Of a DNA stretch of 64,000 bases, positions 23,495 to 64,000 are shown one piece after another. The notes below the pieces were generated by a model. That model searched no databases. It was given only the letters and a program-made list of their open reading frames with translations, and was not told the origin of the DNA. A program made the translations under genes and the position numbers. The DNA comes from Laetmonice hystrix (Eukaryota): the NCBI GenBank assembly GCA_965235115.1, contig OZ249436.1, positions 4,094,001-4,158,000 of the forward strand, given 5' to 3'. Position 1 is the stretch's first letter, and every line of letters begins with the position of its first letter.

Positions 23495-25108
23495 GTATCC
23501 CGCTTGCGGAGAGGTGGTCGAGTCTTAAATACTGTACTTTGATATGCTGTCGAAGTACCGTATGTGGCCTTGAGGTTAAAGTACACTCATGTGACCTTGA
23601 GGGTAAACTACAAGGTATGACGTAACAGCGCCACAAAGACAGCGTCTAGATTGCTTCACCTCTCGCCCAGTCTCGCCCAGGAACGTATCGCAATAAAACA
23701 CACATCAAATTAGTCTTTACACAAAGTTATATTTTTCTAATGAACTTAAATCAACAAACCCTCTCTCAGCTACTTGTTTCTGGAATGTCTGAGACTGGTG
23801 TGAGTAGTTCTTTTAGGCTTCCAGAAATACATTCAAATAACAGATTTTCTTCGATCAGAAAATAGTTTCCATGTTAATCTATATCCTGGTCAGAGGCTAT
23901 CATAGCCCTTTTCACATGTACATCATCAAATTACCTCACAGCATTCACTTCAAGTATTTTACTCAATCTACATCATAATTTTTAACCTTTTGAAGGTCAC
24001 ACAAATGGCAAACAAGTACAAAAGAATTCTAATAAAGATGTACATGTACTCAATCAAAATTTCTTTCTAACTTGAGGTACCTAACGTTAGAAAACGGTCT
24101 CGTATTCATCTTCTTGGCCCATCACTTTGGCACACATTGCAAAAAAAAAAAAAAAAAGTGAGAGAATTAATTTTTCAAGCTACATAAACATGTGTTCAAT
24201 CAAGGTTTCATCATTAACTGAGGTACTTAATTTAAGAAACCAGCTTGATGCCCATCTTGTTATCTCTTCACACTGGCACTGGTTGCTATAACAACCTTAC
24301 ACACACACACCACTGTATTTTCTGATGACTCTCTCTAAGCCAACTTTTATACCGGTTCCTCAGTGAGCGATAATCTGGGTCAATTCAAAGGAGGGTTGAT
24401 GTTCTTTTTTAAAATCATTATTTTCCCTGAACATGTTCACAAGTACAACGCTCAAGATAACTATCAAAGTCGATGGAATTTCTTCTCACGCCATTCTGTG
24501 TAGTTTAAGGAAGCAATCATGAAACCCCTGATTTGAATCATCTATGCTCCTCCAACATTATGCTATGTTTAGGTAACAAAAACACACACAAAACTAGTCA
24601 TCTTCTTGGGGACAGGTTTTAGGACTGTCTGTAGGTATGGATGGACTCAATAACCCTGAACCATTCAATCATACTTACAGCGTTGGCTTTTTCCGCAATA
24701 AATCTTCATGCTACCCTTTGAAACATCTCGTAGTGTGATTATAAACACTGTAGACACAAATAGTCATATCTTGTCTACTGATCTACAGCAGTTTCTACCT
24801 GCGTGCATGCCCAAATATTGTATCGCTTATCAGGACATTACATTTAGGATACAATAGGTCACCGGTATTTTTATTATCTGGATCTTCTTTGGCAACTTTT
24901 GAAAATATCTGTACCAAACCAAGATGTGGTCATGTCTCGGCATACTCCATAATTTCATGAACTACTCCTATGTGCTACAGAACCACATCAAATTAATATA
25001 CCTGACAAATATCTTGGAATTAGACTGCTCTATAAGTTGAGACTGACTTCTGGAAATTGTTACTTGTTGGTACAGTTCACCACGAAATCACCTATCTGTG
25101 AACCTAGA

Positions 25109-28100
25109 TTAGTCCTCCATAGAAATGTGCTGGAAGAGATGCGACATAGACTCTTGGTTGTGGATCCTTCGCATGGCTTCCGATAACATAATGCTGATAT
25201 CAACCGTCTTAATCTTGTGGCACTGCATCTTCTGTATGTCGTGAGACACAGTGTTTGTGACGACCACCTGTAACACCAAACCACACAACACTACAGCTAC
25301 GGCAGGTTAACATATCCACATCAATCTGTATGTCGTGAGACACAGTGTTTGTGACGACCACCTGTAACACCAAACCACACAACACTACAGCTACGGCAGG
25401 TTTACATATCCACATCAATCTGTATGTCGTGAGACACAGTGTTTGTGACGACCACCTGTAACACCAAACCACACAACACTACAGCTACGGCAGGTTTACA
25501 TATCCACATCAATCTGTATGTCGTGAGACACAGTGTTTGTGACGACCACCTGTAACACCAAACCACACAACACTACAGCTACGGCAGGTTTACATATCCA
25601 CATCAATCTGTAGATCGTGAGACACAGTGTTTGTGACGACCACCTGTAACACCAAACCACACAACACTACAGCTACGGCAGGTTTACATATCCACATCAA
25701 TCTGTATGTTGTGAGACACAGTGTTTGTGACGACCACCTGTAACACCAAACCACACAACACTACAGCTACGTCAGGTTTACATATCCACATCAATCTGTA
25801 TGTCGTGAGACACAGTGTTTGTGACGACCACCTGTAACACCAAACCACACAACGTTACAGCTATGGCAGGTTTACATATCCACATCAATCTGTATGTCGT
25901 GAGACACAGTGTTTGTGACGACCACCTGTAACACCAAACCAAACAACACTACAGCTACGGCAGGTTTACATATCCACATCAATCTGTATGTCGTGAGACA
26001 CAGTGTTTGTGACGACCACCTGTAACACCAAACCAAACAACACTACAGCTACGGCAGGTTTACATATCCACATCAATCTGTATGTCGTGAGACACAGTGT
26101 TTGTGACGACCACCTGTAACACCAAACCACACAACACTACAGCTACGGCAGGTTTACATATCCACATCAATCTGTATGTCGTGAGACACAGTGTTTGTGA
26201 CGACCACCTGTAACACCAAACCACACAACGTTACAGCTACGGCAGGTTTACATATCCACATCAATCTGTATGTCGTGAGACACAGTGTTTGTGACGACCA
26301 CCTGTAACACCAAACCACACAACGCTACAGCTACGGCAGGTTTACATATCCACATCAATCTGTATGTCGTGAGACACAGTGTTTGTGACGACCACCTGTA
26401 ACACTAAACCACACAACGTTACAGCTACGGCAGGTTTACATATCCACATCAATCTGTATATCGTGAGACACAGTGTTTGTGACGACCACCTGTAACACCA
26501 AACCACACAACACTACAGCTACGGCAGGTTTACATATCCACATCAATCTGTATATCGTGAGACACAGTGTTTGTGACGACCACCTGTAACACCAAACCAC
26601 ACAACACTACAGCTACGGCAGGTTTACATATCCACATCAATCTGTATGTCGTGAGACACAGTGTTTGTGACGACCACCTGTAACACCAAACCACACAACA
26701 CTACAGCTACGGCAGGTTTACATATCCACATCAATCTGTATGTCGTGAGACACAGTGTTTGTGACGACCACCTGTAACACCAAACCACACAACACTACAG
26801 CTACGGCAGGTTTACATATCCACATCAATCTGTATGTCGTGAGACACAGTGTTTGTGACGACCACCTGTAACACCAAACCACACAACGTTACAGCTACGG
26901 CAGGTTTACATATCCACATCAATCTGTATGTCGTGAGACACAGTGTTTGTGACGACCACCTGTAACACCAAACCACACAACACTACAGCTACGGCAGGTT
27001 TACATATCCACATCAATCTGTATGTCGTGAGACACAGTGTTTGTGACGACCACCTGTAACACCAAACCACACAACGTTACAGCTACGGCAGGTTTACATA
27101 TCCACATCAATCTGTATGTCGTGAGACACAGTGTTTGTGACGACCACCTGTAACACCAAACCACACAACACTACAGCTACGGCAGGTTTACATATCCACA
27201 TCAATCTGTATGTCGTGAGACACAGTGTTTGTGACGACCACCTGTAACACCAAACCACACAACACTACAGCTACGGCAGGTTTACACAGCCATATATTTC
27301 CAATCCAAATGATCGTATACATTTTGAGACAGAAGTGTACTCACGTAGCAATCTGCTGTATGGCTAGAGGACACACAGTCTAGATTTAAAGTTACGTGTA
27401 TAACTATGTCTGTGGTGACTTACTTCATCAATAGGAGAATCATCAATTAGTCTGGGCGCATCTGCTGACAGAATACCATGGGTTGCCATCACGTAGATCT
27501 TGTAGGCCCCTCTCTCTTTTAAAATTTCTGCTGCACTGACGAATGATTCAACATCATCTACCATATCATCCTGGCAAAGAAATGATTAGGAAAAAAATAC
27601 ATTACGGAACTTTACCCTTTCCAATGAAACAATCACACAAAGATTGCTTTAAATCGTCCATAGTATTTTCACAGCTAGGTAAGATGACAAACCAAATGAC
27701 AAAGATTTGAAAACCCAATGATTGCTAAATAATATAATGCAGCAGTACAAAGTTATGTAATAATTAAATGAAGAAAACGGAAACTATAGATTTGAGGATG
27801 TTCCATGGTATACTTACAATGACAATTGCAATCCTCCCCCCGACATCTCCAACAACGTTAATCGGGGGCTTCTCTTTGGCCTGTTGCACTGTAAAAAAAT
27901 CCTCTCGTTAACATTCTGTCACCTTTTATACATAAGACATGTCAGATGAATCACACAACTGCCCAAGTTGGCCTGTTAAAAATCAGCTCAAAGCAGCAGA
28001 TAAACAAATAAGACATTGGGGCCATTGCACTAACAGTGACTGGCTGTCGACCTGTGGTTGCTGTGGTTGTCTGACTGACCATGTCACTCTCAGTCAGCCT

Positions 28101-31100
28101 CCGTCTTGTTTGCCAAAATGTCCACCAGGTGGCCATCATCATAGTTCCACAGTGTGCCACTAGAGGGCCCATCTTTACGGTTACTACCGAAAATTAAACG
28201 GCAAAGGTCCTCACTGTCTAGACTTCTTTCTAATTTTACGGCAGACAGCCCTGGTGTAAAAGATTAAGTAAAAATAGATTTTTGGGCATCAACTGACTTT
28301 TACCAAGGACCAAATTAATGTAAGCTGTTCAATAAAATTAACATACTTGGCATAAACTCAAGGCCAAGGCTGAAACTTTGCCTTGTTTCCACCTCAGGAG
28401 GTGGTGGCGAGTTGCGGCCATCATCAATTTCTGAATCTGCCGTTTTTTCTTCTCCATGAATAACAGCAATACCCAGTCGCAGGCGTTCTGCATATGATGT
28501 AGCCCGCTTCACGGCACCCGGATGGCGTGCTACAATGATTGCATTTCGGTAATCTGGGATCTGTAAAAAAAAAAAGATATTCATAATAAAATGTTTCTAG
28601 TGTAGTCAAAGTAATACAAGACCTATTCAGCTATTGTATGCGAGAATGCTATTTATTCAGCCCAAATTAAAGAATTCTGTCTTCAAGTGCAGCAGCCTTT
28701 ATATATTTTATGGTTTGCATTATACACTTACCGACTCTTTGATATACTGGATGAGAAACGGCGATGCACGTAGGTTGTCAACTGGGATGTCAAAGAAACC
28801 TTGAACTTCCTTCTGGTGAAGATCCATGGTGATAATATGGTTAAAACCTGTTCAGACCATGCATGAAGCACTATTTGTTAGTACGTATATTAGCAATCAA
28901 ATGGTGATTAATTTTAATATTGATGTGAATAATGTTTTCTGGGTCACCGGTATCATACACACGTAAAAACCACAATGCAGTCACTATCTTTACGATTCAG
29001 TTTGACCTTATCAATTAATTAATGTTCAAGGTCACATATGTGTGCCAAACGCTTTGACAAAATTATGTGAAAATACCTGACTTGCTGATCATCGTAGCCA
29101 GTAACTTTGAGACTATGGATCCCCGTTTACGCATCTTGCTTTGTTTTGAGTAAGGCATATACGGGATGACACCAACTATCTTCCGTGCTGATGCCGTTCT
29201 ACATGCATACGCCATGATAAGCATCTCCATGATGTCATTATTAACTTCTCTGAAATTAAATTTCTGATATAAGCCTCACCGTATTTGATTTATTTGATTA
29301 GGTGGGAGTACCATGGGACCCATTGGAACACAACTCAAGAGAGAAAAAAAAGTAAAATAAAATTCACAAACGGGTCACAAAATAAACTAAAATTATTCCA
29401 CTGCTGAACTTCTTAATTATTTAGGTAGATGTTCTTACAACCTACTTCTGAGGTTTTTTGCTCTTCCTAATATGGTGGAAATCATGAGCAATGTAAGTGA
29501 ATTGACATAATTTGTTATGAGCATACACAGTATGTGCTTCATTCTTTTCATTTACCACCTTGGGTTGACTTTACGACAAAGGCGCAGTCCTCAAGACACC
29601 TTTTGGAGGTCAAATATCTACCAACTCATGATGGTGAAACAGACAGTGAAACAGAATTAGTCTGGTAGTCAAATATTTACCAACCCATTACGGTGAAACA
29701 GACAGTGAAACAGAATTAGTCTGGTTCTTTTTCTTCATTTTTGTGCAACAATCTAAACGTCGTTACATCAATCGTCCATTCTCTTTATCTGTAAACCTGT
29801 ACAAATGTATATTGTCCAATCCGTACTTGATCCTGTCTGGATGATGTACACATCACGTCCACGAACAGACTCGCGACAATCTAAACCTTACATCAATCGT
29901 CGACTGTCTTTATCTGTAAAACTGTATTGTCAAATCCTTACTTTGATCCTGTCTGGATGATGTACACATCACGTCCACGAACAGACTCGCGACAATCGAA
30001 ACCTTAAATCAATCGTCGACTGTCTTTATTTGTAAAACTGTATTGTCAAATCCTTACTTTGATCCTGTCTGGATGATGTACACATCACATCCATGAACAG
30101 ACTCGCGACAATCTAAACCTTACATCAATCGTCCACTGTCTTTATCTGTAAAACTGTATTGTCAAAGACTTACTTTGATCCTGTCTGGATGATGTACACA
30201 TCACGTCCACGAACAGACTCGCGACAATCTAAACCTTACATCAATCGTCCACTGTCTTTATCTGACTGTATTGTCAAATCCTTACTTTGATCCTGTCTGG
30301 ATGATGTACACATCACGTCCACGAACAGACTCGCGACAATCTAAACCTTACATCAATCGTCCACTGTCTTTATCTGTAAAACTGTATTGTCCAATCCTTA
30401 CTTTGATCCTGTCTGGATGATGTACACATCACGTCCACGAACAGACTCGCGACAATCTAAACCTTAAAACAATCGTCCACTGTCTTTATCTGTAAAACTG
30501 TATTGTCCAATCCTTACTTTGATCCTGTCTAGATGATGTACACATCACGTCCACGAACAGACTCGCAACAATCGAAACCTTAAATCAATCGTCCACTGTC
30601 TTTATCTGTAAAACTGTATTGTCAAATCCTTACTTTGATCCTGTCTGGATGATGTACACATCACGTAGACGAACAGACTCGCGACAATCTAAACCTTACA
30701 TCAATCGTCCACTGTCTTTATCTGTAAAACTGTATTGTCAAATCGTTACTTTGATCCTGTCTGGATGATGTACACATCACGTCCAGGAACAGACTCGCGA
30801 CAATCTAAACCTTACATCAATCGTCCACTGTCTTTATCTGTAAAACGGTAATGTCAAATCCTTACTTTGATCCTGTCTGGATGATGTACACATCACGTCC
30901 ACGAACAGACTCGGCCACTTCAACCATGGTTTCTGAAAACACAAAACATACACTCATTCACTATTTACTTGCACAGTTTTATATGGTCCATAGAATAATT
31001 TAAATATACTTATAGTTAGTATACATGTCAAAGTATGCCTATGAAGATAAAACACAGATCTGGCCTAAAATAATTAGATATGAATCAAGAAGGTAGATTA

Positions 31101-33700: not shown

Positions 33701-36700
33701 ATGACGTCCCCTTACTTCACTCCTGCGTTGCGAATGACAAGACTGACAGCGAGAAAGTTGGCCAGTTCCAGCGATAGCAACATCAAGCCTAAGCTGACCA
33801 AACTTTCCAAACGAATCAAATCTAAGAAGGTGGTAAGCAAAGACGGGTTCCCGGCCGGCACTCCAGCCGGCAGTACGTCATGCACCACACGTGGTGCCCA
33901 GCACCCTCGCCCGGAGCCGGCGGAGGGACTGAGTACAGCTGCTACTGCCGCCGTCAAAATCAAGGAAAGTCAGTGTCGACCAGGGACCAACTATCCATCG
34001 CGTACTGCATACAAACGAACATCAGTTAAAGTAGAATACGATGAACGGGGTGGTACAGAGACTAGTGACGGCAGTGATGGACAACCCGTCACTGCCGTCA
34101 AGGCCAAGGCGTTGAAGCTAGGCTGGGAACCCAAGGACTGGAGGCAACAACTTGAAAATATTTATGAGATGCGGAAACACAGAGATGCACCAGTGGATAG
34201 CATGGGGTGTGATCGAATCAGTGATACCCAAGCAGAACCCAAGGTGGTTATTAGAATTGGATAATTGGAAGAGACTAGTACTTCTAGATCTACTAATATT
34301 TGCCATTTCCATTTGGTACTAGTAATAGTAATTTAAATTTCTGCGAATTAAGTTTACTCCATCATCCATGTTCCAAAGACAAAGTACATGATGTATGTAT
34401 GAATGCTTGTAATCCGTATGTATAATGATCTACTACAAACTGAAAATCAGGATAATAGTTTGACCAGAGATCCTGACATGGTTTGATAGTAGATCTAGGG
34501 CTGATGGGTGATATGGGGGGGGGGGGGGGGGGGGGGGGGTTATGGGAAGAATTTGCTAAGTGGGTTCAGCTTCGTCAATTCAGAAAGTTCTTTGGGGAAA
34601 AAAGAAAAATTGGTTGCCAAGGGAGGGGGGAGGGGTGGTTAAACGCTCTAAACACAACAGGTAGAAGCAATTAATCCAGCTGTATAGCCAAGTTATGGGG
34701 AGGGGGGGGGGGGGAGTCGAAGCCCTTCTTGATCTGCATCTGCCTCAGTACCTCTGCAATTGTAACTCCAGAAAATATTCATTATTCTTCATCATCATAC
34801 CTTTTCTCCACAGACAAACAAGCAGAGTAAAAGAAATATTATATATTTCCCTAGGTATACAGGTACCAGTGCCTGCTCAGTTTGATGTTGTCAAGTCAGA
34901 CCAAAGACCAGGTGACAAGTGCAGCAATGATGAAGTTACGAGCTCATGGCTGCTCACCTGACAACATTCTCAATACTTCAGATGAGAAGCTAGGGGAACT
35001 GATATATCCTGTCGGTTTTTGGAAAGTAAGTGTCCTTACAGTCTTCTTGGAAATAGCATAAAAATATATCCGTCCCTGCCCCCCAAAAAAGTTGCCGGGT
35101 CCTGGTATGAAGAACATTTCAAAGGTGATGTGGTTTTTGTTTTTTTTAAATAATTTTTTTTTGGGTTACAGCTGGCTAAATGCTGGTAAGCCTCATAAGA
35201 ATTATCATGTAAAATGAACCCATAAACAAGGGCCATACCTTGGCTGTCATCGCTTTGAATACAACACACTCCTGTTGCAGTGTTGTTAATCAAAAATATC
35301 CATTACAACAATCGTTAGTTTCAAGCCTTACCACTAGGTGGCAGCACAATTCACACAGTCATGCAAGGGAAATAAACACTGATGCACTCCTTCTGAAGTG
35401 ATGTGCACATACCAGAAACCAGGGATTTTCTTTTTTTGGCCTAAGTTAGATCCAAATACCATTGAACATTTTTCCATGATTAATAACCCCAAAAAAGGAA
35501 ACAAAGTGGGTAAAAAATATATTTTCCAATTCAATGGGAAATATCTTATTTTTCGCAAGGACATACCAGGGTATATAAGTAATTGGTGTAGGCCTATCTA
35601 TACAAATGTGTTTTAGAAATACTGATTATAGACTTTTTTGCCAGTTTATCTTTAATTTAACTCCTATTGATCAGGTTAATATAATCGCATCAATAATGTC
35701 CCATGATCTTTGAGAGCATCAATAATGTCCCATGATCTTTGAGAGTGGTGTCTGTAAATTTGGATTGACCTTGTATCCAGACAAAAGTGCAGTATATCAA
35801 GAAAACGACACGTATCCTGAAAGAACAATATGATGGTGACATCCCTGACACCATTGAGGGCCTCTGCAAACTCCCAGGTACTGTAGGCCTACTTTAGCTC
35901 ATGCAGAGCTACTCAGTTACAAAAATCTAAATTTCTTATGTTAAAAAAAATTAGTGAATTGCTGTCCACCTTTTAGGGGGGGGGGATTGTTTTTTTGTTA
36001 CACATGACGACAAATTGTCAATAAGGGCTACAAACTTGCGATAGTCATGAGTAATAACATGTATCATACCCAATGGTCTGCGGCAAATTGTCTGGTCTAA
36101 AGAAACTTGTAGTTTAACCTGAAGTTCAAGCCATGTCGAGCCTTCTTGAATTATTTAATCTGCTGACAGTAAAGTATCCGTTGCAGGTGTCGGACCAAAA
36201 ATGGCCCATATCACAATGAAATCTGCGTGGAATGTGATCACTGGTATAGGAGTGGATACACATGTCCATCGTATAGCGAACCGTCTTGGGTGGGTCCGTA
36301 AAGCCACAAAACAGCCGGAGGATACACGCAAAGCTCTAGAAGATTGGCTTCCTAGGTTAGTCAACTGCTAGCTCCTTCTTCTAAATTCTATTCAGTTTGT
36401 CAGAACCGTTAAAGCCACGAGGTTGTAGAATCTTGGGACGAGCCAGCAAAATACAGTTTATTGCAATAACTTAGTCTACCATGAATTCTTCATCAAGTTT
36501 TTATTCAACATTATTCTATAGTTACTTAAGTTGATACTTGATATTTCTTTTTCAGAGAATGCTGGGAAGAAGTCAATATATTGTTTGTGGGCTTCGGCCA
36601 ACAGACATGTCTGCCGGTTGGCCCGAAGTGTGTCACGTGTCTCAATAGACGGCTGTGTCCCACTGGTCGGAGTAACACACGTGGTATGAAGGTTGAGACA

Positions 36701-39757: not shown

Positions 39758-42671
39758 CTACTTGTCATCCTTTTTCTTCTGGACAGCAAAGTACATTTCT
39801 AGGGGTTTGTTCACCTTCCAATATTTTTCATTTACTTGTTCCAGTGTCATGGATCCTGTGAGTACAGTAAAGTTGCCTGGCGTTGATGCAATATAAATGG
39901 TGTATTTCTTCTGCTCAATCTCAACGCTTGTCCCTGAAACCAAGAGTTGATATGATAGTTAGTAGCTCACTAAATAGAACCTTGGATGAACCCATAAAAC
40001 CCCACAACATATAGTAACTGGCTATCATCAGATCAGAGACTTTTGCGACATGATAGTTTGAAAAATATACACATTCCTTATTAGTATTCATCTCTTTTAT
40101 GTTGGTTATTGGTCTTCATTATTTTGTTGTCATTCCTGCAGAACAATCTTCGTGCTTCTAGCTCTATGTGAAACCAATCCATTCAACATGAAAAAATAAA
40201 ATTTGGTGTACCTGATTCAGCTTCCTTCACTTTCTGGGCCTCCAGGGCTATTCGCAAGGCCAAATACTTGCACAGGTGGTCCACTGCAACATTTCATCAC
40301 AAATTTAAAATTAAATGCCTTAAATTTGCAACATTTCTATATATTATAACATAATGGCCCTGGTGACATTATCAATGATCAAAATTAACATGGGGCCCTT
40401 TTGTCTCTTAAAATAAGTAGCAATATACTCCATGGCTTACTTACTCTTAAAAGGTTGTGTGTCAACTAACCCAAAAATACTCTATGGCTTACTTTTAAAG
40501 GTTGTGTGTCAACCAACCCAAAAATACGCAGCAATATACTCCATGGCTTACTTGTACTTTTAATCGAAGGTTGTGTGTCAACCAACCCAAAAATAAGTGG
40601 CAATATACTCCATGGCTTACTTACTCTTAATCAAAGGTTATCTGACAACCAACCCAAAAATACAGCTGCACTTTACAAGACAAGAAGCCATTTACTTGCA
40701 AAACTACTGTCTGCATGTCAGCTTAATAATGTTCATCGGATCAAACATGGCATGTAATTCATACAAATTTCATACCTATTACAGTGCCTCCCCCAGGATT
40801 TCAGGAAGGCTGAATAATACGTCAGTAAAAAGGTGCACATTTTGCATGGGAGTGAGTGAGTGAGTGAGTAGTGGTGGTTTTCCGCCGTGCCGGCATCCCA
40901 CATTTTGCATGGGACAAGTGCCTAAGGCATCGGGGCGAGTGCCAGAGGTGTGAAGTGTTAGAGGGGGATCTGGGGTTTTAGCAAAGGAATTGATGCTATG
41001 GTAGTTATATGGATGCTATGGATTGATCAATTATGAATGATATTGTAAAATGTATAAATTTAGATATGTTCATAAGGCCACTTAAAATTAATAAATTGTT
41101 TTACATGGCCGGCCGCCTCAATTTTTTGGTGCCGCTTCGATTTTTTTTATATTTTATATTTTTCAAAAAGTCCGTTTTTTTCATCCCCAAAACCGTCTCC
41201 CACAGTTCTGTCAGGGTGTTACAGTTAAGTGACTCTCAATGTATAGAAGGGCTGTACAAAATGTTGAGATTTTGAGAAATTAAAAGTATTTTTCCAGTAT
41301 TGGTGATCTCTGCTGTCCTTCCTCTTGTCGAGGAAAAATATAAAATATAAAATATAAAATGCCCTACTCACCAACATTTCAGAAGTTGGAGTCATGTAAA
41401 ACAATTTATTAATTTTAAGTGGCCTAATGAATGAACTGGTTCTTTGAGGTCTGTGTAATGACACACTGACAGGTCAGCTGGGTCATTTCTTGATAACTTT
41501 GGGTATTATGAATTATATGGGGGAGGCACGGCACTGTCTGACAGGGACGGGGTGTAAAAAGGCAGGGTGCCGCACCCTGCTACTTTTCACTAGGGCAGGC
41601 ACTGCCTAAACTTCCCAGTAGGCTAGTCTGGCTAGTCTAAGTCTAAGCAGATATAAAGGCAACTTGTATTTGCCAGCTATATACAACAGTGGCGTACCCT
41701 GAAACTGGACCCAGAGGGGTGCTGGAAATAACCAACATCGTAGGCGCTGCAAATTGGGAGGGGGCTGTGGGCAACAAGCGCAAAAAAAAAATTGGGAAAA
41801 TTGAGGGGGGTGCTTGAGCACCCCAAGCACCCCCCTGGGTACGCCACTGTACACTGCCTAATCTTTAAACCACCAATGTTGTACCTGTGGCATTCGCTGT
41901 CGTTTTGACATATCTGGTGGCGTTGACATCACTCTGTTCCTCTTGTGGATGAGGTTTGAAGACAAGCTCGACGTCGTTTACCACCTTCTCCGGGGTACAC
42001 ATCGCGGCGATGACGGCATCTGGTACACTCTCCCCGGCCACAGACGTCGACGACCCGCCGTCCCCGAGCGACTGGTTCGATTCCCCAGCAGACTCTTCCG
42101 AAGGAGCACGAGGTCGTTTTCGGGGTGTTGCTTCATTTGCTGAAGAATTGGCACCATCCGTTTGTTCACCTGGCAAAACTTCACCTCCTTCCACGGGACC
42201 ACCATGCTTTCTCACCCTCTGCGCCCGGTTTCGGGCCTGCAAACGCATGACCTCTTTGAAGGTGTTTGTGAGCGAATTAGTGCTTGTCTGTTGCGTCAAA
42301 TTCTGCAGCACTCGTTCTTGGTGTGCTTCATATTCATCCCTACTTGGGTATATCTTGGAAATGAGGGCATCAAAATTTGGATCTGGTCGAAGAGACCGCT
42401 TCGAGACCAGTTTTTTGCGACAAGTGGGGCATTCCTTATTGCCCGATCGCAAGGCTGTGATGATACACTCCTGACAGAACCGATGCAAACACTCTTTTGT
42501 TGTCATTGTGTTCTTCAACATATCGAGACATATTGGGCACATTAGCTCGTTATGTAAGCTCTTTGGACTTACGGCAATCTCTGTAGTGTCTGTGATTGTT
42601 TCCTGTGGGGTTCTGTGGAGCTCATAAAGGCTTAATTCCCACGTTTTGCTCGGTACTGGTGGATGTTCCAT
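39758..42671 (-). CDS. RNF2: Polycomb PRC1 E3 ubiquitin ligase RING1/RING2 (Sce/RNF2 orthologue), 3 coding exons, 344 aa
   Basis: Exons (-): 41885-42671, 40212-40283, 39758-39933, total 1035 nt. N-terminus [83 protein letters not shown] domain [61 protein letters not shown]. The ORF-track start at 42701 is a GTG; the first ATG is at 42671. Confidence 0.96.
41076..41424. mobile_element. MITE with perfect 32-bp TIR and TAA duplication (PIF/Harbinger-like) in RING intron 1
   Basis: TAA|ggccacttaaaattaataaattgttttacatg ... catgtaaaacaatttattaattttaagtggcc|TAA. Confidence 0.85.
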
Positions 42672-44067
42672 GTTGATTTTCTTGGAGTGTCGCTTCTCCA
42701 CATCCGGGCACTTTCAGTGCGCTGAGTGATCTGACTGGTCCCCTGTTCAACTCCTATCTCAATCTCCGAGGAGAGGGAGGACTGAGCAGGGGACCAGTCA
42801 GCTGAATGATCTGCGTGTGAAACACTGGTGCGACATGAGAAATATCCTCTCACTCTCAGCTGTGTCTGGTTGCTCCAGATGGGAGAAAAACGCACCAGGC
42901 GCGTCAGAGTAGGGGAGGGGGCAGGGGGGGGGGAGCAGTTGCCCCCCACTTTTTCCTACACTACTACAGCAAAAAAAGTGAAAGGCGGCTAAGGCTATAG
43001 CCTTGGCTAGAAATAATAGGCCTTGGGCGGCCTGTGGCTGTGTTGAAATTTCCACTGAAAGTGACACCAAAACTCCCAAATTAATTTCATGACCAATGCC
43101 ATGGCAATGCCAGATAAAATTAATCAAATTCACTAATATTGTTCCCAAGAACGTTGTGGTAATAAAGAACCAAACATGTAGATCTCTATATCAAATTTAA
43201 TGACTTTTCCATGACTTCTCCTCGTTTTGGCCGCTACTCTGCAAATTCCATGACTTTTTCATAACTTTTGACATGACCGTGGCCGTGGCGTGGGATCATT
43301 GACTTGGACTTGGAAGTTGGAGTTGGAATCAGTGGCGTCCGTAGGCCCTATCCAGAATTTTTTTAAGGGGGGGTTTCCGAAGTTTAGGTACCGGTAGGCC
43401 TACTTCACACAGATGGCCATTAGCAATTGGAAATTTAACAAAAAGACATCAAATAAATATAAAATAGATCTAGGCCTACTAGGCCTTATTAATGCAATGA
43501 TCTTGGGACATCTTGTGACTTGTGAAGTTGTGTGGAAATATGAAGGTTTCCTTTGGTTAAAATAGATCTAATGCATTTTACACCCCTAGCTTTTTTTTTA
43601 CCAAAATTTCCTTAACATAGTATTTTTTTAAGGCGGGGGGTCTCCAGGCGGGGGGTCTCCAGGTGCGGATTCAGGGGGGCCGAGGGGGCCGCGGCCCCCC
43701 CTTTCGTCAGGGTACCAATCAGAAAAAAGGCAAAATTTTGTTGTTTGCAACTGTAAAAACAAACATTTTGCTTTCTCAGAATGCAGGAAATTTCAGGAAA
43801 TGCCATTTCAGAGACTATAGATGTTCAAAATTGTCCGGGGCATGCCCCCGGACCCCTACTAGGGCTCGCCCCCCCTTTAATTCCAACTGGACCCCCCTTT
43901 TCCAAAATCCTGGATCCGCCCCTGGTCTCGGGATAGGCCTACTTTGAAACCCCCCTGGCCACACTGCAGTGACTCTACCGGCCCTTTCACAGTTCATCCG
44001 CGATTATCTGCGCAGCAATTTGCAAGTCGGTCTCGCTTTCGAAATATCGGTTGATGATTGTCGCAAA
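42672..44067. promoter_or_regulatory. Putative bidirectional promoter region between RING1/RNF2 and E4F1
   Basis: Divergent start codons are about 1.4 kb apart, with a CpG-rich patch at about 43990-44120. Probably includes a RING 5'UTR intron. TSS not determinable from sequence. Confidence 0.5.
43660..43924. mobile_element. CAGGGGCGGATCC-type MITE family B, copy 1
   Basis: caggtgcggattcagg ... cctggatccgcccctg termini. The body is the reverse complement of 46520-46758. Confidence 0.75.
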
Positions 44068-47000: not shown

Positions 47001-50000
47001 GCTGAATTTTACAAATTCTTCTGGACAGACACCAATTACCTTGTCTTTTCTTCACTAGTAAATTATGCCTACTCTGCTGGATATCTTTCTATTGAGCAGA
47101 AGCGTGGAATCATAACCCTAATCCCCCAAACGCGCAAAAATAAACTATTCATAACTAACTGGGGACCTATCTCTCTCCTTAATACTGACTATAAACATAC
47201 CACATACATGTGTATTATTAACGCGGATCAGACCGCCTATATCAAAGGTCGTTTCATTGGTGAAAATATCCGTGTCATATAGACGATATACTGTCCATTG
47301 CACAAGCACGCGGATTATCCTGCATTATAACTACGGTCGATTTTGAAAAGGCTTTCCATACTGTCTCCTGGACCTTCATTAATAAAACCCTTCAGGCCTT
47401 TAATTTTGGCCCTATTTTCCATAACTAGATTAAAATTTTATCCAACGACATTATTATATATGTACATCAATATCCAATAATAACGGACGTTTAGGTGCCC
47501 CCTTTCATCCACAGAGAGGGATACGTCAAGGCTGTCCTATTTCAGCTTATTTATTCTTGCTAGTTGCTGATCTCTTAGCTTCTCACATAAGAAAAGATAA
47601 AGATGTAAAAGGTGTCTTTATAAATGATGACGAAATTAAAATTACTCAAGTTGCTGATGATACTACACTAATTCTCCTTGATTGTCAGTCCCTAAAGAAT
47701 GCTGTTAAAATCTTAGACCTATTTTACTAATGCGCAGGCTTAAAAATTAATTTAAACAAAACAGTGGCAAAATGAATAAATTCTCCACCAAATATAAACT
47801 CAAATCTTTTTGGTATTATATGGACCAACGGAAATATACAGTCCATTGGTATTACTTTTGTACGCAGTGAGTTTGAATCATACAAGATAAACTTCAAAAC
47901 TAAGATCACTAATCTCCGTAACTTACTTAACGTTTGGCGTCAGAGAAATCTTTCAATAAAAGGAAACATCACTATAATTAATTCGCTTGCCATCTCTCCT
48001 ATTATCTATATGGCTCAAATAATTCGCGTGCCCACAAATGTTATCGTTGAAGTAGAAAAACTGTTATATGACTTTTTATGGAGTGGTGGTAGTTCAAAAG
48101 TTGCCAAAAGTGTCATCACTCAAACGATAGATAATGGTGGTTTGAAAATGGTGGATTTTTAACAGGTAAGCCAGGTCTCTCTTAAACCTACCTGAACACA
48201 AAACCATTCCATTTTTTCAATATACAGATATTGTGAGTTGAAAGCTCTGCCTCCCTTTTATAGGGAGTTATTAACCTTCTGGAATGATATAAAGAATGTT
48301 AACCCCCACCAATCGGGAACATTATTCTCAAACAATATATTTGGAATAACAATTCTCTATTAATTGGCAAAAAGCCCTTTTGTTGGAAACAATGGATTAA
48401 TATGGGTGTACTTTACATTTCTGACTTACTAACACTTGATTCTGACTTCATGTCGCATACTGATCTCCATACCAAGGGAGTCCGATGTAACTTTCTAGAC
48501 ATATGACAAATACGTCAATGTATACCCTTCGAGTGGAAGGTTATCCTATTTAAATATTCCAACGAATTCCAACGACCTCGGCCTCATTAAAGCTATTACT
48601 GCATTTGGGGTAATACAGAACCACGTGGAATTTGGTCATATTCTTGAATGACAGGCAGTGATGACTTGTGATACGCCAGTTGTGGATAGACGGGAGGAGG
48701 GGGGCAGGTCAGAGCTTTAATGAGGCCGAGGTCGAGGTCTTCTTAAAGCGAACAGACTATAGGGCCTACTACCTTATAAAAAAAGAGGAAGACTGTGCAC
48801 TGTTATGTAGGGCCTACTTATCAGGTTCTGTTCAAGAAAGTTCTACCCTGCTTGTATCATATAACAGTCTACTTGTATACAAATGATTATTTACCAAGCC
48901 TTAAATGTATATACTATAAATTGTTATATAACTATACTTTATCACATTTCAAGTTAGCCTATAACGGTTTAAAAGGAAAATAAAAGCCCGGATGCCTAAA
49001 TATATTGGGTAAACCAAGCTGATTGGCGATATATCCCCAATTTTGGAGTATAGCAAGTTGCACTGACCCACCCATGAAAACCTGTTGATATAACACATTA
49101 AGCTACTACTTGCAAATGTCTATCATGCAGAAATATTAACTAGGGATATCATACTTAACAAAAATGCATATTAGAATTTGCCCCCTAAACTGGTACCGAA
49201 TGGCCATTTTTGGCCTATCTGGCTCATGGACTACATGTCAATTGGTGGCTTGTAATGTTTCTGCTTCCAGATTTCCAGGATTTTTTAGATATTCTAAAAC
49301 CTGGGGGTTTTCCCCAATTTTATATCTATAGGTAAAGTATGGCAAGACATTCTTGGACAAACAAGCTCTGATGCCACAGATCCTTAGAGGAAGAGGGAGA
49401 GGGAGACCAGTCAGAGGTCGTGGACGACCTCGCAAGGTGGACAAACCTGCACAACTATCAGAAAATGAGCAAGTAAAAAAAGGTATTTTTATTTATTAAA
49501 TTGGAGGAAAAATGTTCAGAGGTAGAATAAAGGAAATTTTGTATTTTGGACTCGTTAGGTCAGTGCCAGTTTAATTGATCATTGGTCACGTGACTCAATG
49601 CACTTACAGCTCCTGCAGTACGGTTCAAGCGCTCCTTACAACTACACACACCTGACAACATTTATACAAATACTTCTTACAAATGCCCAAAATGTGACAA
49701 GACATTCCGTCGAGAGGCTGCTCTCAACCGACATGTAGAATATGACCATGTAAAGAAGGAGGACGTGGAAGTTGATGAAGAAGATGAGGAAGATAAAGAT
49801 TCAGAAGGCAGAGAGGATTTCAATGAGGAGCAGAATGTGGATTGGACAAGTGGTGGATCACTGAAGCCATATGGTTGTACACATTGTGGAAAGTATTTTA
49901 GAGAGGTAGGTGTCGCTAACTATCACTGTATCAGACAAGTACGGTGAAGTACCAGATGTATTGATAGTCTAATTGGTGCCGGGCGGGCGTGGGCACATCC

Positions 50001-53000
50001 CTGAGAGATCATTCTAATTGGCTTTAACATGCTTCCATTATTGGATAAAATTGGACCAAGTGACTGAGCTGGATTCATATAGATCTGTTACTATAATAAT
50101 GTAAATGTTTCTGAAATGTCGTTGGCCATTGATAGTCTTTTATTTTATTCAATTAGGCAACTATTTTGCGAGCACACTACTTGACCCATTCTGACAGGCG
50201 TGAGTTCCAATGCAACTGGCAAGGTTGCACATTTTCTTTCAAGACAAAAGGTTCCCTGAAGCGTCACAGGAGGCGGCATACAGGTATGGCAATCATAAAG
50301 GAACAGAAGGCTATATCAAAGTTTGCTGTCATAATACAAAGTAGAGTCACTGTTACATTCATATCATAGAAAACATGCAGTACCCATTTTGAAAAAAATC
50401 TAAAGGAATCTTGAAATTATTAGAACAGTAATGAGTATCTGTCATGTACATTTTTTAAACAGGTGAACGACCTTACAAGTGTGAGCAGTGTCAACGGTGC
50501 TTTGGAGAGTCTGGTGCCCTGTCGAGACATCTAAAATCTAGGTTAGCTTATTTTGGAGAACAAGCAATAGACCCATGCTTAAGTTGATGACAATGTATCT
50601 TTGTATCTTGGTGGGCTTACACCTTGATGACGATGTATCTTTGTATCTTGGAGGGCTTACAACTTGATGACAAAGTAACTTTGTATCTTGGAGGGCTTAC
50701 AACTTGATGACAAAGTAACTTTGTATCTTGGAGGGCTTACAACTTGATGACAAAGTAACTTTGTATCTTGGAGGGCTTACAACTTGATGACAAAGTAACT
50801 TTGTATCTTGGAGGGCTTACAATTTGATGACAAAGTAACTTTGTATCTTGGAGGGCTTACAACTTGATGACAAAGTAACTTTGTATCTTGAAGGGCTTAC
50901 AACTTGATGACGATGTATCTTTGTATCTTGGAGGGCTTAGAACTAGAGGACAACAACTTGATGACAATGTATCTTTGTATCTTGGAGGGCTTACAACTTG
51001 ATGACAAAGTATCTTTGTATCTCTTCGAGGGCTTATAACTTGATGACAAAGTATCTTTGTATCTTGGAGGGCTTACAACTTGATGACAAAGTAACTTTGT
51101 ATCTTGGAGGGCTTACAACTTGATGACAAAGTAACTTTGTATCTTGGAGGGCTTACAACTTGATGACAATGTATCTGTGTATCTTGGAGGGCTTACAACT
51201 TGATGACAATGTATCTTTGTTTCTTGGAGGGCCTACAACTTGATGACAATGTATCTTTGTTTCTTGGAGGGCTTACAACTTGAGGACAATGTACAACTTG
51301 ATGACAATGTGATTTCCTATCTTGGAGAGTGATGAACGTTGAAGTAAACATAACCTGTAGGATTGTTTGTATTTGACAGAACTCCATGTACAGCAAAGAC
51401 TGATTCTGATTTCCCACGGTATGGCAAGCGGCAGGAATTGGTTCTACCTCCCAGTATGTTAACAGACATGTCGGTTGGGGAGGAGGACCAATCTCAGCAA
51501 AGTGCAGACCATGAGCCAACCACAGAATGCTTGGCTGTAACTGAGGAAGTCATGCAAACAAGTGAAGTTGTTAACATTGCAGGCCAGGTAAGTATATCAA
51601 TGATTGTGACTTTTCATAGTTGGCTCGAGACTGTGCCATTTCTGAAATATTATGACCAAATTCTATGTATTTGCTTGAACTCCTGTGGAATGGAATAAAG
51701 GTACACGTGTGGATTGGTCACTCCTGAGTTAAAGCACTTGTTGTAGGAGAATACGGAGAAAGGACCTGTCATAGTGCAGATAGATGACACAACATTGGAA
51801 GGTCTGGAGGGGGACGAAGTCCATCACTGTAGGGTGAGTGATAATCTCTCGTTGATTGTAAACTTATTACCAAGAGAACGTAGTTGAAAACCTTTATATA
51901 TATATCTAGGATTATCATGGCTGTGGCCACACTGCCGGTTAATTATTTAAAGTAAATGGGGGAATCCCAATAAGAGAGGCAGATAGCGCAGACTTATGGT
52001 AAAATTAAACTTCTGTCCATTCAGGCATGTCAAGTCGTCCTGGCTAATGAACACCTTCTTAAAATCCACTTACGGAGTCATCTTGCTTTGACACCTTTCC
52101 GCTGCGGGTTGTGTGCTTACGCAACCGCAAAAAAAGATCAACTTGATCTGCACAAACGGGTTGCTCATCACATGAATTTACCGGTATGTAACTAAATATT
52201 AAATTCTCTTCTTTCTAAAATAGCATTTTTTTCATAGTTTATGCAAAATATTTATTATGATATAATTACAAAATTCATCTGTTGGTTACAGGCATTTTAG
52301 CTGAAGTCTACTGCTCAAGAGAATATTCTTCTTTTACTTGCATAAATATATTCACATTAAAATATTTTTATTTTGCTTGCTTTTCTGTCTAACCTACCTC
52401 TATTTTAGACAATAGATAAAACATATTTCTGAAACATGATTCTGGCAAATGCATTTTGACCATGGTAAGAAATGAACACTATTAGTATATAAATACAGTC
52501 AGACCTGATGAATCCTTACTTTTGTAATCCATACATCTCCTAATCAGAGCAATTTCTTGTAACCTCTTAAACTATTCTTCAAAATGATTCAGTCATCCAT
52601 TTGTATCAAAATCCTATTTTAATGGGCACTAGTTGTTCAGATACACTAGGTCTGACCGTAGGTTAGTTGCAGTTCCTCAAGTGTTGTGTACTTTAATCGG
52701 ATGCAGCGTAAAGCACAGAAACTTGGGTAGAATGATGATGTTTTTAGTACTGATTGAGTGGTAGGTTTCTCTCAATGACTTTCCTTGATTGGACAGGTGG
52801 GCCCAGCAGCTGGCACTAACAGTGAGCAGCTGCTGATGACAACTGGAGTGCTACCAGAGGGGACTGAAGGAAAACAGTCCGAGGTTCACCCTATCAAGGC
52901 AGTCACAGAGAACGGTGACGTAAACATGGATCTATCTGTCCAAGAATCAGACGGTGTGGTCACGGGAGCCGAGGTCACAATCATGGCGACACCACTCCAG

Positions 53001-56000
53001 GCCAAGGAAACAACACCAATCCACATAGACGGTAACACACAACCAGAGTCTGCAGATTCAGCTAACCAGACACGGTCAGTGACATTATTTCAAACTCATT
53101 GAACTACAATGTATGTCAATGATGAAATGAAGTTTCTTTGTTTTTTTTTTGTTCAAATATTCTTTATTGCAGCATCAATCAAGTTTTACAAAGTTACAAA
53201 TAACATTACATCAACTTCTTCCTGGCTGTATAGGTTGTTTTTCAGCAATTGCTGGTTTTCGGCGGCAACCTAGTAAAACTCCCATCCTTTGATTTTTTAA
53301 TAGTTAGTGGCTTAACTATTCATGCCTTTGTGAAAAGGCATTTTCTTCAGTATACAGAGCTATCGTTGTTGTATAATGGTAAAAAATCTGTTTGGGGAAA
53401 AAATGCAGGTTTTGTTTTTATGTACCTTTCTATATGTTGTCACGTGAATAGGCCCATTTGCACTTTCAAAAAAAGTTGTGACCTTTCAGTGAAGCTATAT
53501 TTGAGGATGTTCTCTGTGGGCCAAGAGTTTTCTAAGATGCAGTAGTCTATCAGAAACAGTTTTAGAAAATTTGGAGGGGAGATGTCAATGTGTTGCTTCA
53601 GATATTGTACATGTAACTTAAAAATGTAAGCCCTGCCAGGATCTCCACTGTACGTCTCACCGGTACAGCCAAGAACGGACAACCATACATGTACATGTAT
53701 TTGGAAGCTTAGTTTGACGTTAGTCCTCCAGATGGCGCCCCGGGTTGAGTTGTAAAGGCCCTCATGTATGGTCCAAAGGTCCGATAGTTTAATTACGATT
53801 AGATTTCCTTGAATTCTGTGTGTATATATGTACGCACGTGCATCAAGTGTTGTCAAGTTATGTTTTACTTGGGCGGAGCAGGGGGTGGGGTCGGGGTGGG
53901 GTCGGGGGTTTGAAGTTGACTCTATAATTATAAATCATTAATGGGAGGATGATGATGATGATGATAGTGATGATGAGGACGATTTGCATGAAGAATAAAG
54001 ATTTGGACAGTTTCCTTGTAGTCATTAGCGTCTTCCTGTATGTCTAACCGACTCCGATGGACCAGTGTCGTTCGTCCAGGGGTGACTGCACCCAGGCACA
54101 AACCTGGACCCCCTGTAGTTTGTAATGGTTGCGTCCAGAATGGAGAGCCACCCAATCCCCCCTCTAGTGTGAACTCCTCCCAGACTCCTCATCAGGCATG
54201 TCGGTGTGGGCACACTGGTGGTGGCTGTCAGTGACAGTCTGGCTGGTAGATATTGTTTCAGTTTTAGTTCTGGCTATCTGTTTGGTAACATGAAATCAGG
54301 TTAATCAATATGAACAATACATGGCCTGCATGTCAGGCCCAGTCGAGGTAGGCTTATTTGACTTTAGAAAAAAGGTGAAAATTAATTGGAAAAAAAAACT
54401 GGAAAAGAAGCATCCCTTAATTCTCCAACCTACTTCCTAAATTCATATTAATTAATTAATTAATTTAGGTATTTTATTTGTAAATATATTTCTTGGAAAT
54501 GTTCTTTGTTATTTAATTATATAATTTTTTGTAAAAGCCTTTAATTTAATTTTCTATCACAGATGGGGGTGGGGGTGGGGGTGGGGGGGGGGGGGGTCGT
54601 CCCAGGTATGGAACCCTCCGATCAGATATGGTTTGGTAGAGTTGACCTGGTTAAGGACAGAGGTCATCCCATCGCCACACCAGTCCTACAACAAATAACC
54701 TGTCATACCATGTGTTCTGGTCTCACCTAGATTCCCGGTGGGGAGGGGGGGGGGTATGTATGCTGTCATTGGGGGCAACACTATAGCGGGGCCGTCAGTT
54801 GGTGACCTCTTTCATGACCAGGTTTGCAATCCTTGACCAAGAAATGTCATGACCTGGCTGGGAAACGAGGTCAAACCTGAGGAAGCTGCCCCCCCTGATC
54901 GGAGTGGTTGAGTCTGTTTATATTAGGTCAAGGCATTATGTAAGTGGGTTGTGCCCGAGCTGGGGGGGGGGGTGGAACGCGGAGTCAGTCAGAGCTCACA
55001 GGGGATCATACCAGGTGTACCCTTGTGACCTACCCTGTTACAGATGTATGATCACAATTAAACTTGATAAATTCGTTGAATACACAATTTAGTGAGCAGA
55101 CAGGATGGTGTAAGACATCTATAGCTGCCATCCTGCCACTGGGGTTTCACTTCTAGCACAGGGAAGAGATACATCATCTGTAATAATAGGAGCAAGCAGA
55201 TGGTCACAGTAAAATAATTTTAAATTTGTAGATTTGTATAGTCCATAATTAAGGTCAGAATACCACCCTGGTTGAGAAGTGAGATAACGTTTGGTAAACC
55301 TTTCCTTGTTGATATTATTGTCTCCTAGATTTCTGACAGACGTGTATGTACATGTATGTATCTGCTGTCCAGAGGTCCTGTCTGGGCGGCGGGGGGTTGG
55401 GGGGTTGTGGGGGGGGGGGGGGATTCAAACCCGTTGAAAATGGCCTGTTCTCAGATAGCGCCAACCGAATGCTATACAGGTTCTTTAAAATATTCAGATT
55501 GCCTTTTTGCATATATACTCCGTGAGAAAAGATCACTTCTATGTGTCCTTATGTATCCGTATGCCGTCTAGATATTCAAGCACAATCCAAACATTAATTG
55601 GTAAGAAAGGTACACATTACATATGTGGTCGATGAAGCGGGTGTTACCTCATTTATAATGGTATGTCCCAAACCCATACACCCCACATTTACAATGGAAT
55701 GTCCTGAAACCAGCGTTCCTAGACAGATTGTGGCACTGTTTGAGGACAAGTACGCGAGTCTGGCACCCTTTCGATCACTGACCAAGGTCAAGCTCACGGC
55801 AACAGGCCCTCTCAAGGTCAAACTCAGATTGTGGCACTGTTTGAGGACAGGTACTCGAGTCTGGCGCCCTTGCAATCACTGACCAAAGGCAAGCTCACGT
55901 CGACAGGCCCTCTCAAGGTCAAACTCAGATTGTGGCACTGTTTGAGGACAGGTACTCGAGTCTGGCGCCCTTGCAATCACTGACCAAAGGCAAGCTCACG

Positions 56001-63891: not shown

Positions 63892-64000
63892 GTCAGCGTT
63901 CGTTTCTCTCTACATCTAAAGTTGTTTTACTAGGTCACCAGGGGGCGCCATGGTCTGACACTGTCCGCTACCTTATGTTATTTGTCGGTCACCAATAGGT

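Follow-up and report, generated by a model that had tools for sequence, protein, structure and literature searches.

A tandemly amplified PRPSAP intron 8 acceptor in Laetmonice hystrix, with a plausible branch-point variant in the exon-adjacent copy that is unlikely to be a discriminating mark

The boundary between intron 8 and exon 9 of a PRPSAP gene in Laetmonice hystrix has been amplified in tandem into a mirage minisatellite, in which 22 near-identical acceptors precede one intact exon. The acceptor is probably picked by position, and the single base that sets the exon-adjacent copy apart would then be a substitution in an edge unit, perhaps the current branch point and dispensable for the choice. 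An initial annotation of the window (the whole 64,000-nucleotide stretch of contig OZ249436.1 that was analysed) had proposed instead that this base marks the correct acceptor among identical decoys. If one base did choose among 22 near-identical acceptors, the locus would be a natural experiment well suited to tell branch-point-first from exon-definition models of 3' splice-site choice, and also a case of selection acting against repeat homogenisation. The variant is more likely an incidental edge change in a known kind of repeat, possibly helpful and non-essential.

The gene and the array

The gene that harbours the array is on the minus strand; PF14572 is the Pfam match of its last exons, and its homologs carry the name PRPSAP. 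Nine coding exons were delimited by translation and tblastn. The closest full-length named homologs over exon 6 are those of annelids (Capitella, 75%; Owenia, 77%); a match from Tetraodon scores higher, but is 826 aa long and covers 75%. The assembly, of 627 Mb in 35 contigs, is chromosome-scale, and this locus is the only one in it that holds the 94-bp minisatellite. The features of this part of the gene are the following:

27424..27570, minus strand: PRPSAP exon 8, with its donor GTAAGT starting at 27423
25268..27423, minus strand: PRPSAP intron 8 (of a gene with nine coding exons), 2156 nt
25231..27286, minus strand: 94-bp minisatellite, 21.9 copies, 98% matches
25268..25270, minus strand: true 3' splice site CAG of intron 8, at the junction seen in an X2 contig
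25109..25267, minus strand: coding part of the terminal exon 9, 52 aa and stop (PF14572, X2 contig)

Each unit consists of 57 nt of intron ending in CAG followed by the first 37 nt of exon 9. The array presents 22 acceptors at an exact spacing of 94 nt, that is, 21 decoys and the exon-adjacent true copy, and CAG/GTGGTC is intact in every one of them (22/22). Once the 21 extra units are subtracted, the intron measures 182 nt. The consensus unit holds no yUnAy in the range scanned and has a GU-rich tract with 53% pyrimidine. Ten distinct variants occur in the array, and six private substitutions are spread over five of the 22 units; the last unit has a private change, and shared variants group in neighbouring units (8/9, 14/15). 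Part of the unique 5' portion of the intron (about 27340-27380, minus strand) bears a weak likeness to the unit (P about 0.02 in one shuffle test) and is possibly an older, decayed copy of it.

Use of the exon-adjacent copy is seen in assembled contigs. Four runs of one sample cover the stretch, all of them as contigs, which show presence alone, and the comparison with the window covered 24400-25365, a stretch containing 1.4 units. One X2 contig (1732 nt, depth 60) spans exon 9 and the UTR and departs from the genome at 25267 into the letters of the end of exon 8. None of the runs is registered as RNA; since it joins exon 8 to exon 9, this contig is taken as RNA-derived, and its departure at 25267 indicates that the exon-adjacent copy gives a full mRNA; the 3'UTR runs beyond 24400 in the same contig. 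No X2 contig falls on the intronic part of the unit, which is not counted against use of the decoys, and presence-only data may be compatible with such use at a low level. The sample is heterozygous at 24564-25121, where contigs and window differ by 8 substitutions as well as 3 indels, one of them 15 bp long; differences are found at 25031, 25083 and 25121, among other places, and this heterozygosity in exon 9 and the UTR is usable to follow allele-specific splicing.

A protein made from any of decoys 1-20 would end after 17 codons, and one made from decoy 21 would carry a frameshifted tail of 50 residues. The variant at 25309, described below, abolishes the in-frame TAA at which translation from the penultimate decoy would stop, so that a shifted tail of 50 aa replaces one of 17 aa. 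Rescue of the protein through this lost TAA was considered and rejected, since 94 nt shift the frame and the 50-aa tail is wrong; of 86 homologs in which the VVTN motif is found, 83 terminate 51 residues beyond it.

Other genes were recognised in the same window. NTHL1 lies head to head with PRPSAP and, judging from homology, has an unusual GTGGTT donor after exon 1 (34244-34249, plus strand). Pfam matches additionally point to a gene with RING and RAWUL domains of the PCGF/RING1 type (39760-42713, minus strand), to reverse-transcriptase fragments (47264-47727, plus strand), and to two similar C2H2 zinc-finger genes (49330-53100 and 60550-63900, plus strand).

The exon-adjacent variant and its predicted branch point

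The base in question and the motifs around it are as follows:

25309, minus strand: variant T at -42, found in the exon-adjacent unit alone, against A in the remaining 21
25306..25312, minus strand: TGTTAAC heptamer, matching YNYTRAY at 7/7 positions, with the candidate branch A at 25307 (-40)
25291..25299, minus strand: two TAGs, present in most units, with their G at -30 and -24 (25297 and 25291)

The initial annotation was accurate on the variant itself: 21 units read TGTAAACC on the minus strand and the exon-adjacent unit reads TGTTAACC, a difference seen in the assembly as a plus-strand A at 25309, and the change yields TTAAC, which matches yUnAy with a candidate A at 25307, at -40 from the first exonic base (25267). 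The heptamer TGTTAAC conforms to both yUnAy and YNYTRAY, with U at -2, and across the 22 acceptors no other 7/7 YNYTRAY occurs between -45 and -15. It is also the best U2 match of the array, with a pairing score of 5.0 versus at most 4.0 in the decoys, given by 4 Watson-Crick and 2 wobble pairs; the branch-recognition sequence GTAGTA is present in a U2 copy of the L. hystrix genome. The same heptamer recurs at -20 of the acceptor of PRPSAP exon 7. Some 12 U2 snRNA genes stand in tandem elsewhere in the assembly, with a spacing of about 7.4 kb (G000:C4, about 36.53-36.61 Mb).

How far branch motifs can be relied upon in this species was judged from the 23 hand-annotated acceptors of the window (24 were listed, one motif being missing and one spurious match dropped), over the range -45..-15. 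The yUnAy motif occurs at 17 of the 23, versus 14.0 in shuffles, which is not a significant difference (P 0.14), and six lack it altogether. YNYTRAY, found at 10 of the 23 versus 5.3 in shuffles, is enriched (P about 0.02). The branch consensus in L. hystrix is thus real yet optional. Besides, AGs within the last 40 nt are common at these acceptors, and four of them hold YNYTRAY at -37 to -44, followed by AGs in three of the four cases.

The two TAGs between the candidate A and the true AG had been raised as a caveat. They are indeed there, with their Gs 10 and 16 nt downstream of that A, but the objection is weaker than feared, since in human AGs lying about 12-18 nt past the branch point are sterically protected, according to the available part of PMC4358997. 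With the consensus real but optional and AGs frequent near the acceptors, a branch point at -40 may be compatible with the two TAGs. The TGTTAAC at -40, a prediction from sequence, may be the branch point actually used.

Branch-like variants in the decoys

The statement that the functional copy alone has a branch-like variant holds for the strict 7-mer and fails otherwise, because six decoys carry variants of this kind:

25771..25775, minus strand: private CTGAC of decoy unit 17 (acceptor 25737), a perfect yUnAy with its A at 25772 (-35)
25855..27077, minus strand: five decoys with CTGTAAC at -24 (A at 27077, 26889, 26419, 26231 and 25855)

The CTGAC of decoy 17 arises by a private C>A at 25772. 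The five decoys with CTGTAAC are units 3, 5, 10, 12, and 16, which share AC at -24/-23, a change that also removes the TAG at -24. Even the decoy heptamer TGTAAAC scores, in terms of U2 pairing, at least as high as the best site of 17 of the 23 real acceptors.

Other splice-site arrays in the same genome

Arrays of splice sites are found at other places in this genome, some of them in the window itself. The search for adjoining exons took in 181 of the 215 frames at array edges, drawn from 20 sampled loci, after repeat-derived and redundant frames were dropped, and gave one credible Pfam match; three further 10-kb loci were inspected and held no additional acceptor array. The arrays that bear on the question include the following, with L009 and L030 numbered within their own loci:

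L009, 1539-4289, minus strand: C-type lectin exon with 17 copies of a 64-bp acceptor unit upstream and at least 39 copies of a 32-bp donor unit downstream
L030, 1256-2128, plus strand: purely intronic array, 45 bp x 19
29810-30913, minus strand: second PRPSAP array (116 bp x 9.6), lying across the donor of exon 3
61727-62907, plus strand: 59 bp x 20 array over the donor (GT at 61747) of a C2H2 zinc-finger exon

At L009, 17 acceptors predicted from the genomic sequence stand ahead of a C-type lectin exon recognised with Pfam. A 7/7 YNYTRAY is found at -24 in 13 of the 16 decoys, and at -26 in the exon-adjacent copy, which has a poorer pyrimidine tract. The 45-bp unit of L030 is a complete pseudo-acceptor, with TTCTAAC, a pyrimidine tract, and TAG, and the array ends about 10 nt before the real acceptor of an EGF exon (Pfam); a scan of the last 10 units compared nine acceptors before this exon, among them the real one, and showed the same 48 nt in all. 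At L013, five acceptors precede an unconfirmed exon, and the last copy is without yUnAy. In the genomic sequence of these three other acceptor arrays, two of them Pfam-supported (L009 and L030) and one unconfirmed (L013), a private branch mark on the exon-adjacent copy was found in none (0/3). The units of L009 and L030 already hold a branch motif and therefore speak to whether a discriminating mark is needed, and not to any advantage from acquiring a branch point.

On the donor side, the exon-adjacent donor is identical to most of its decoys in PRPSAP intron 3, in the zinc-finger gene at 61727-62907, and at L009. The GT is kept in 19 of the 20 copies of the 59-bp zinc-finger array, and every 116-bp PRPSAP unit further contains an acceptor-like site, TTTTACAG, along with a second GTAAGG.

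What selects the acceptor

The reading preferred here is that position decides. The last copy would be used as the sole acceptor leading into an intact terminal exon, through terminal-exon definition and exonic signals; every decoy runs into repeat intron sequence after 37 nt. Reed and Maniatis reportedly found in 1986 that duplicated sites beside truncated exons are disfavoured. Rare errors may additionally be cleared by decay, given that transcripts spliced to any of decoys 1-20 would reach a stop after 17 codons and carry as much as about 3 kb of untranslated RNA behind it. The T at -42 would have arisen later, by one substitution in a unit at the edge of the array, out of reach of homogenisation; by completing a good U2-pairing heptamer it may well provide the site where the lariat now forms, with the choice of acceptor independent of it. 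Edges do change more often: among 42 arrays of at least 8 copies, taken from the window and the 20 sampled loci and including the PRPSAP array, private changes occur at 43 of 84 edges versus 119 of 754 inner units.

The age of the variant points the same way. The outermost 5' copy borders on unique intron sequence near -45. Its base at -42 is the majority A, which stands only 3-4 nt from the edge of the array and is unlikely to have been overwritten from inside, so the A is probably ancestral and the T derived. In that case the array would have formed and been carried without the variant, which argues against the proposal that the T is a compensatory change allowing the array to exist, although the order of events would still be the one supposed in the initial annotation.

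The main alternative is that the variant is a needed mark. Here, a strong branch point would commit U2 at the last copy, scanning would skip the protected TAGs, and the decoys would lose because they lack the U at -2. This is unlikely. A perfect yUnAy is present in decoy 17, and TAAC stands at -24, a more usual distance, in five decoys upstream of the used copy; the common decoy heptamer, as noted above, already outscores or equals most real sites. A branch-like motif is not unique to the copy in use, the two Pfam-supported arrays and the unconfirmed one do without a private mark, and the array appears to be older than the variant.

Against the positional reading could be held the small strict coincidence, the branch-poor unit, and the enrichment of YNYTRAY in real acceptors. 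Only two of 282 substitutions in range create yUnAy (0.45% when weighted by the observed mutation spectrum), and both are seen in the array, the true copy having one and a decoy the other; a single one of the 282 creates YNYTRAY, and it is exactly the observed variant. For the true copy, the strict coincidence amounts to about 0.2-0.4%; it rises to about 5% if all changes that strengthen the acceptor are admitted (32 substitutions, 9.4% weighted). This small probability favours some function. Moreover, the lack of yUnAy in the consensus unit, together with its GU-rich tract, implies that a branch point could matter more here. On the other side, acceptor arrays are common, with four in roughly 300 kb of sequence surveyed, of which one was chosen on a prior indication, so a survey of many windows would be expected to meet such coincidences.

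Structure of the RNA was tried as a discriminator and rejected. The true CAG is the most open of the 22, with 0.74 versus 0.18-0.61 at a window of 150 and 0.79 versus 0.29-0.78 at a window of 240, but the margin is small and the majority allele at -42 changes little (0.67 and 0.76, respectively). The openness of the true CAG is a weak hint.

A quite unlikely alternative is branch-point turnover, where homogenisation would overwrite the working copy with the branch-poor consensus and selection would repeatedly favour a new branch point there, for splicing efficiency and not as a discriminator. Older branch points would then be moved inward by unequal crossover and persist in the decoys as fossils, such as the TAAC at -24 and the CTGAC at -35. 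Concerted evolution and selection on splicing would be in standing conflict, and the array would record successive branch points (-24, -35, and -40), the newest of which is perhaps needed by now for the right acceptor to be chosen, a picture held to be just as improbable. What speaks for turnover is that TRAY motifs at -45..-15 arise through three of the 10 distinct array variants, against an expectation of 2.6% for each variant (P about 0.002 in a post hoc test), or two of nine when the true-copy variant is left out (P about 0.02). The variants of 54 other arrays create no excess of motifs (yUnAy, 36 versus 48.9 expected; TRAY, 44 versus 51.3). However, the test was post hoc and concerns one array with small numbers, both edge units are in the majority state at -24, and inspection of the other three acceptor arrays revealed no such pattern.

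That the base at 25309 is an assembly error, or a rare private allele without effect, is very unlikely. It is a single base in a repeat, and the contigs of the three runs covering the repeat never show the window base there. However, these contigs are a collapsed consensus that also misses the AC variant present in five copies in all three runs, so this absence is uninformative; the X1 and X4 contigs are the bare consensus cycle (82 + 72 - 60 = 94 nt). In contrast, one run retains the two-copy -17 variant of the assembly, as deduced from piece positions and depths, and the assembly is of chromosome scale. As regards length polymorphism between haplotypes, a trait of mirages, the depth ratios of the contigs for the repeat are 18-23 in two runs and 45-68 in the third, where depth is no copy number.

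The least probable reading is nested or recursive splicing, in which CAG/GTGGTC at each boundary would let a decoy act as a donor and the array would be excised as an intron of its own, giving the same mRNA; yet the donor regenerated after joining exon 8, GAA/GTGGTC, is weak by the established consensus, and L009, L013, and L030 have no GT after the AG, which implies that such arrays are tolerated without this route. In its favour are the AG/GT present at every copy, the GTGGTT donor that neighbouring NTHL1 would use, with homology ending there, and the finding that duplicated AGGT segments can form introns, as given in the available part of PMC4974935.

The locus is a ready-made minigene, comprising 21 decoys, six of which have branch-like variants of their own, and one authentic site.

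Comparison with known systems

The closest known relatives of the PRPSAP array are the mirages of lancelets, described for Adh3, the globins BflGb6 and BflGb9, troponin C, and PGBD5 (PMC3087553, PMC3902484). Like the PRPSAP array, they consist of minisatellite-like tandem copies across an intron/exon boundary, with normal splicing kept. The unit in L. hystrix likewise spans the boundary and keeps the splice signal in 22 of 22 copies; exon 8 is joined to the full exon 9 from the authentic site in one X2 contig, as presence in one sample; and concerted evolution inside the array is accompanied by a divergent boundary unit. This last trait is shared as well, as cluster boundaries in lancelets are excluded from homogenisation (PMC3087553). 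BflGb6 duplicates the 3' end of an intron and the start of an exon, as the PRPSAP array does, with 3-6 copies versus 22 copies at a terminal exon in an annelid-like host. A branch-motif variant in the authentic copy is not described for lancelet mirages in the portions available of PMC3087553 and PMC3902484; a literature search outside subscription journals found no published report of branch-point gains in such arrays.

Splicing to the authentic or distal site is common to lancelet mirages and to the human CBS 68-bp duplication (PMC3087553, PMC3902484, PMC1802585, PMC2630376). In CBS 844ins68, as in PRPSAP, a 3' splice site and the start of its exon are duplicated, and the distal, exon-adjacent site is used. 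However, CBS involves two copies and an internal exon, and there the G runs separating the two sites, rather than a branch point, are given as the reason for the choice (PMC1802585, PMC2630376). The 37-bp VNTR of human F7 intron 7 also resembles the PRPSAP array, in that identical functional pseudo-sites go unused and position relative to the exon decides. It differs in acting on the donor side, and its 5'-to-3' scanning rule, applied to acceptors, would pick the first copy, which is the wrong one (PMC1557585).

As for the predicted branch point, the distant-branch-point cases likewise have a branch A beyond the typical distance of about 24 nt and AGs 10-17 nt downstream of it; they are human cases in the context of SF3B1, whereas that of PRPSAP is a prediction (PMC4358997). 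Taken with these systems, the PRPSAP array belongs to a known kind of repeat, the mirage, and its variant is real in the assembly, plausible as a branch point, and unlikely to be a discriminating mark.
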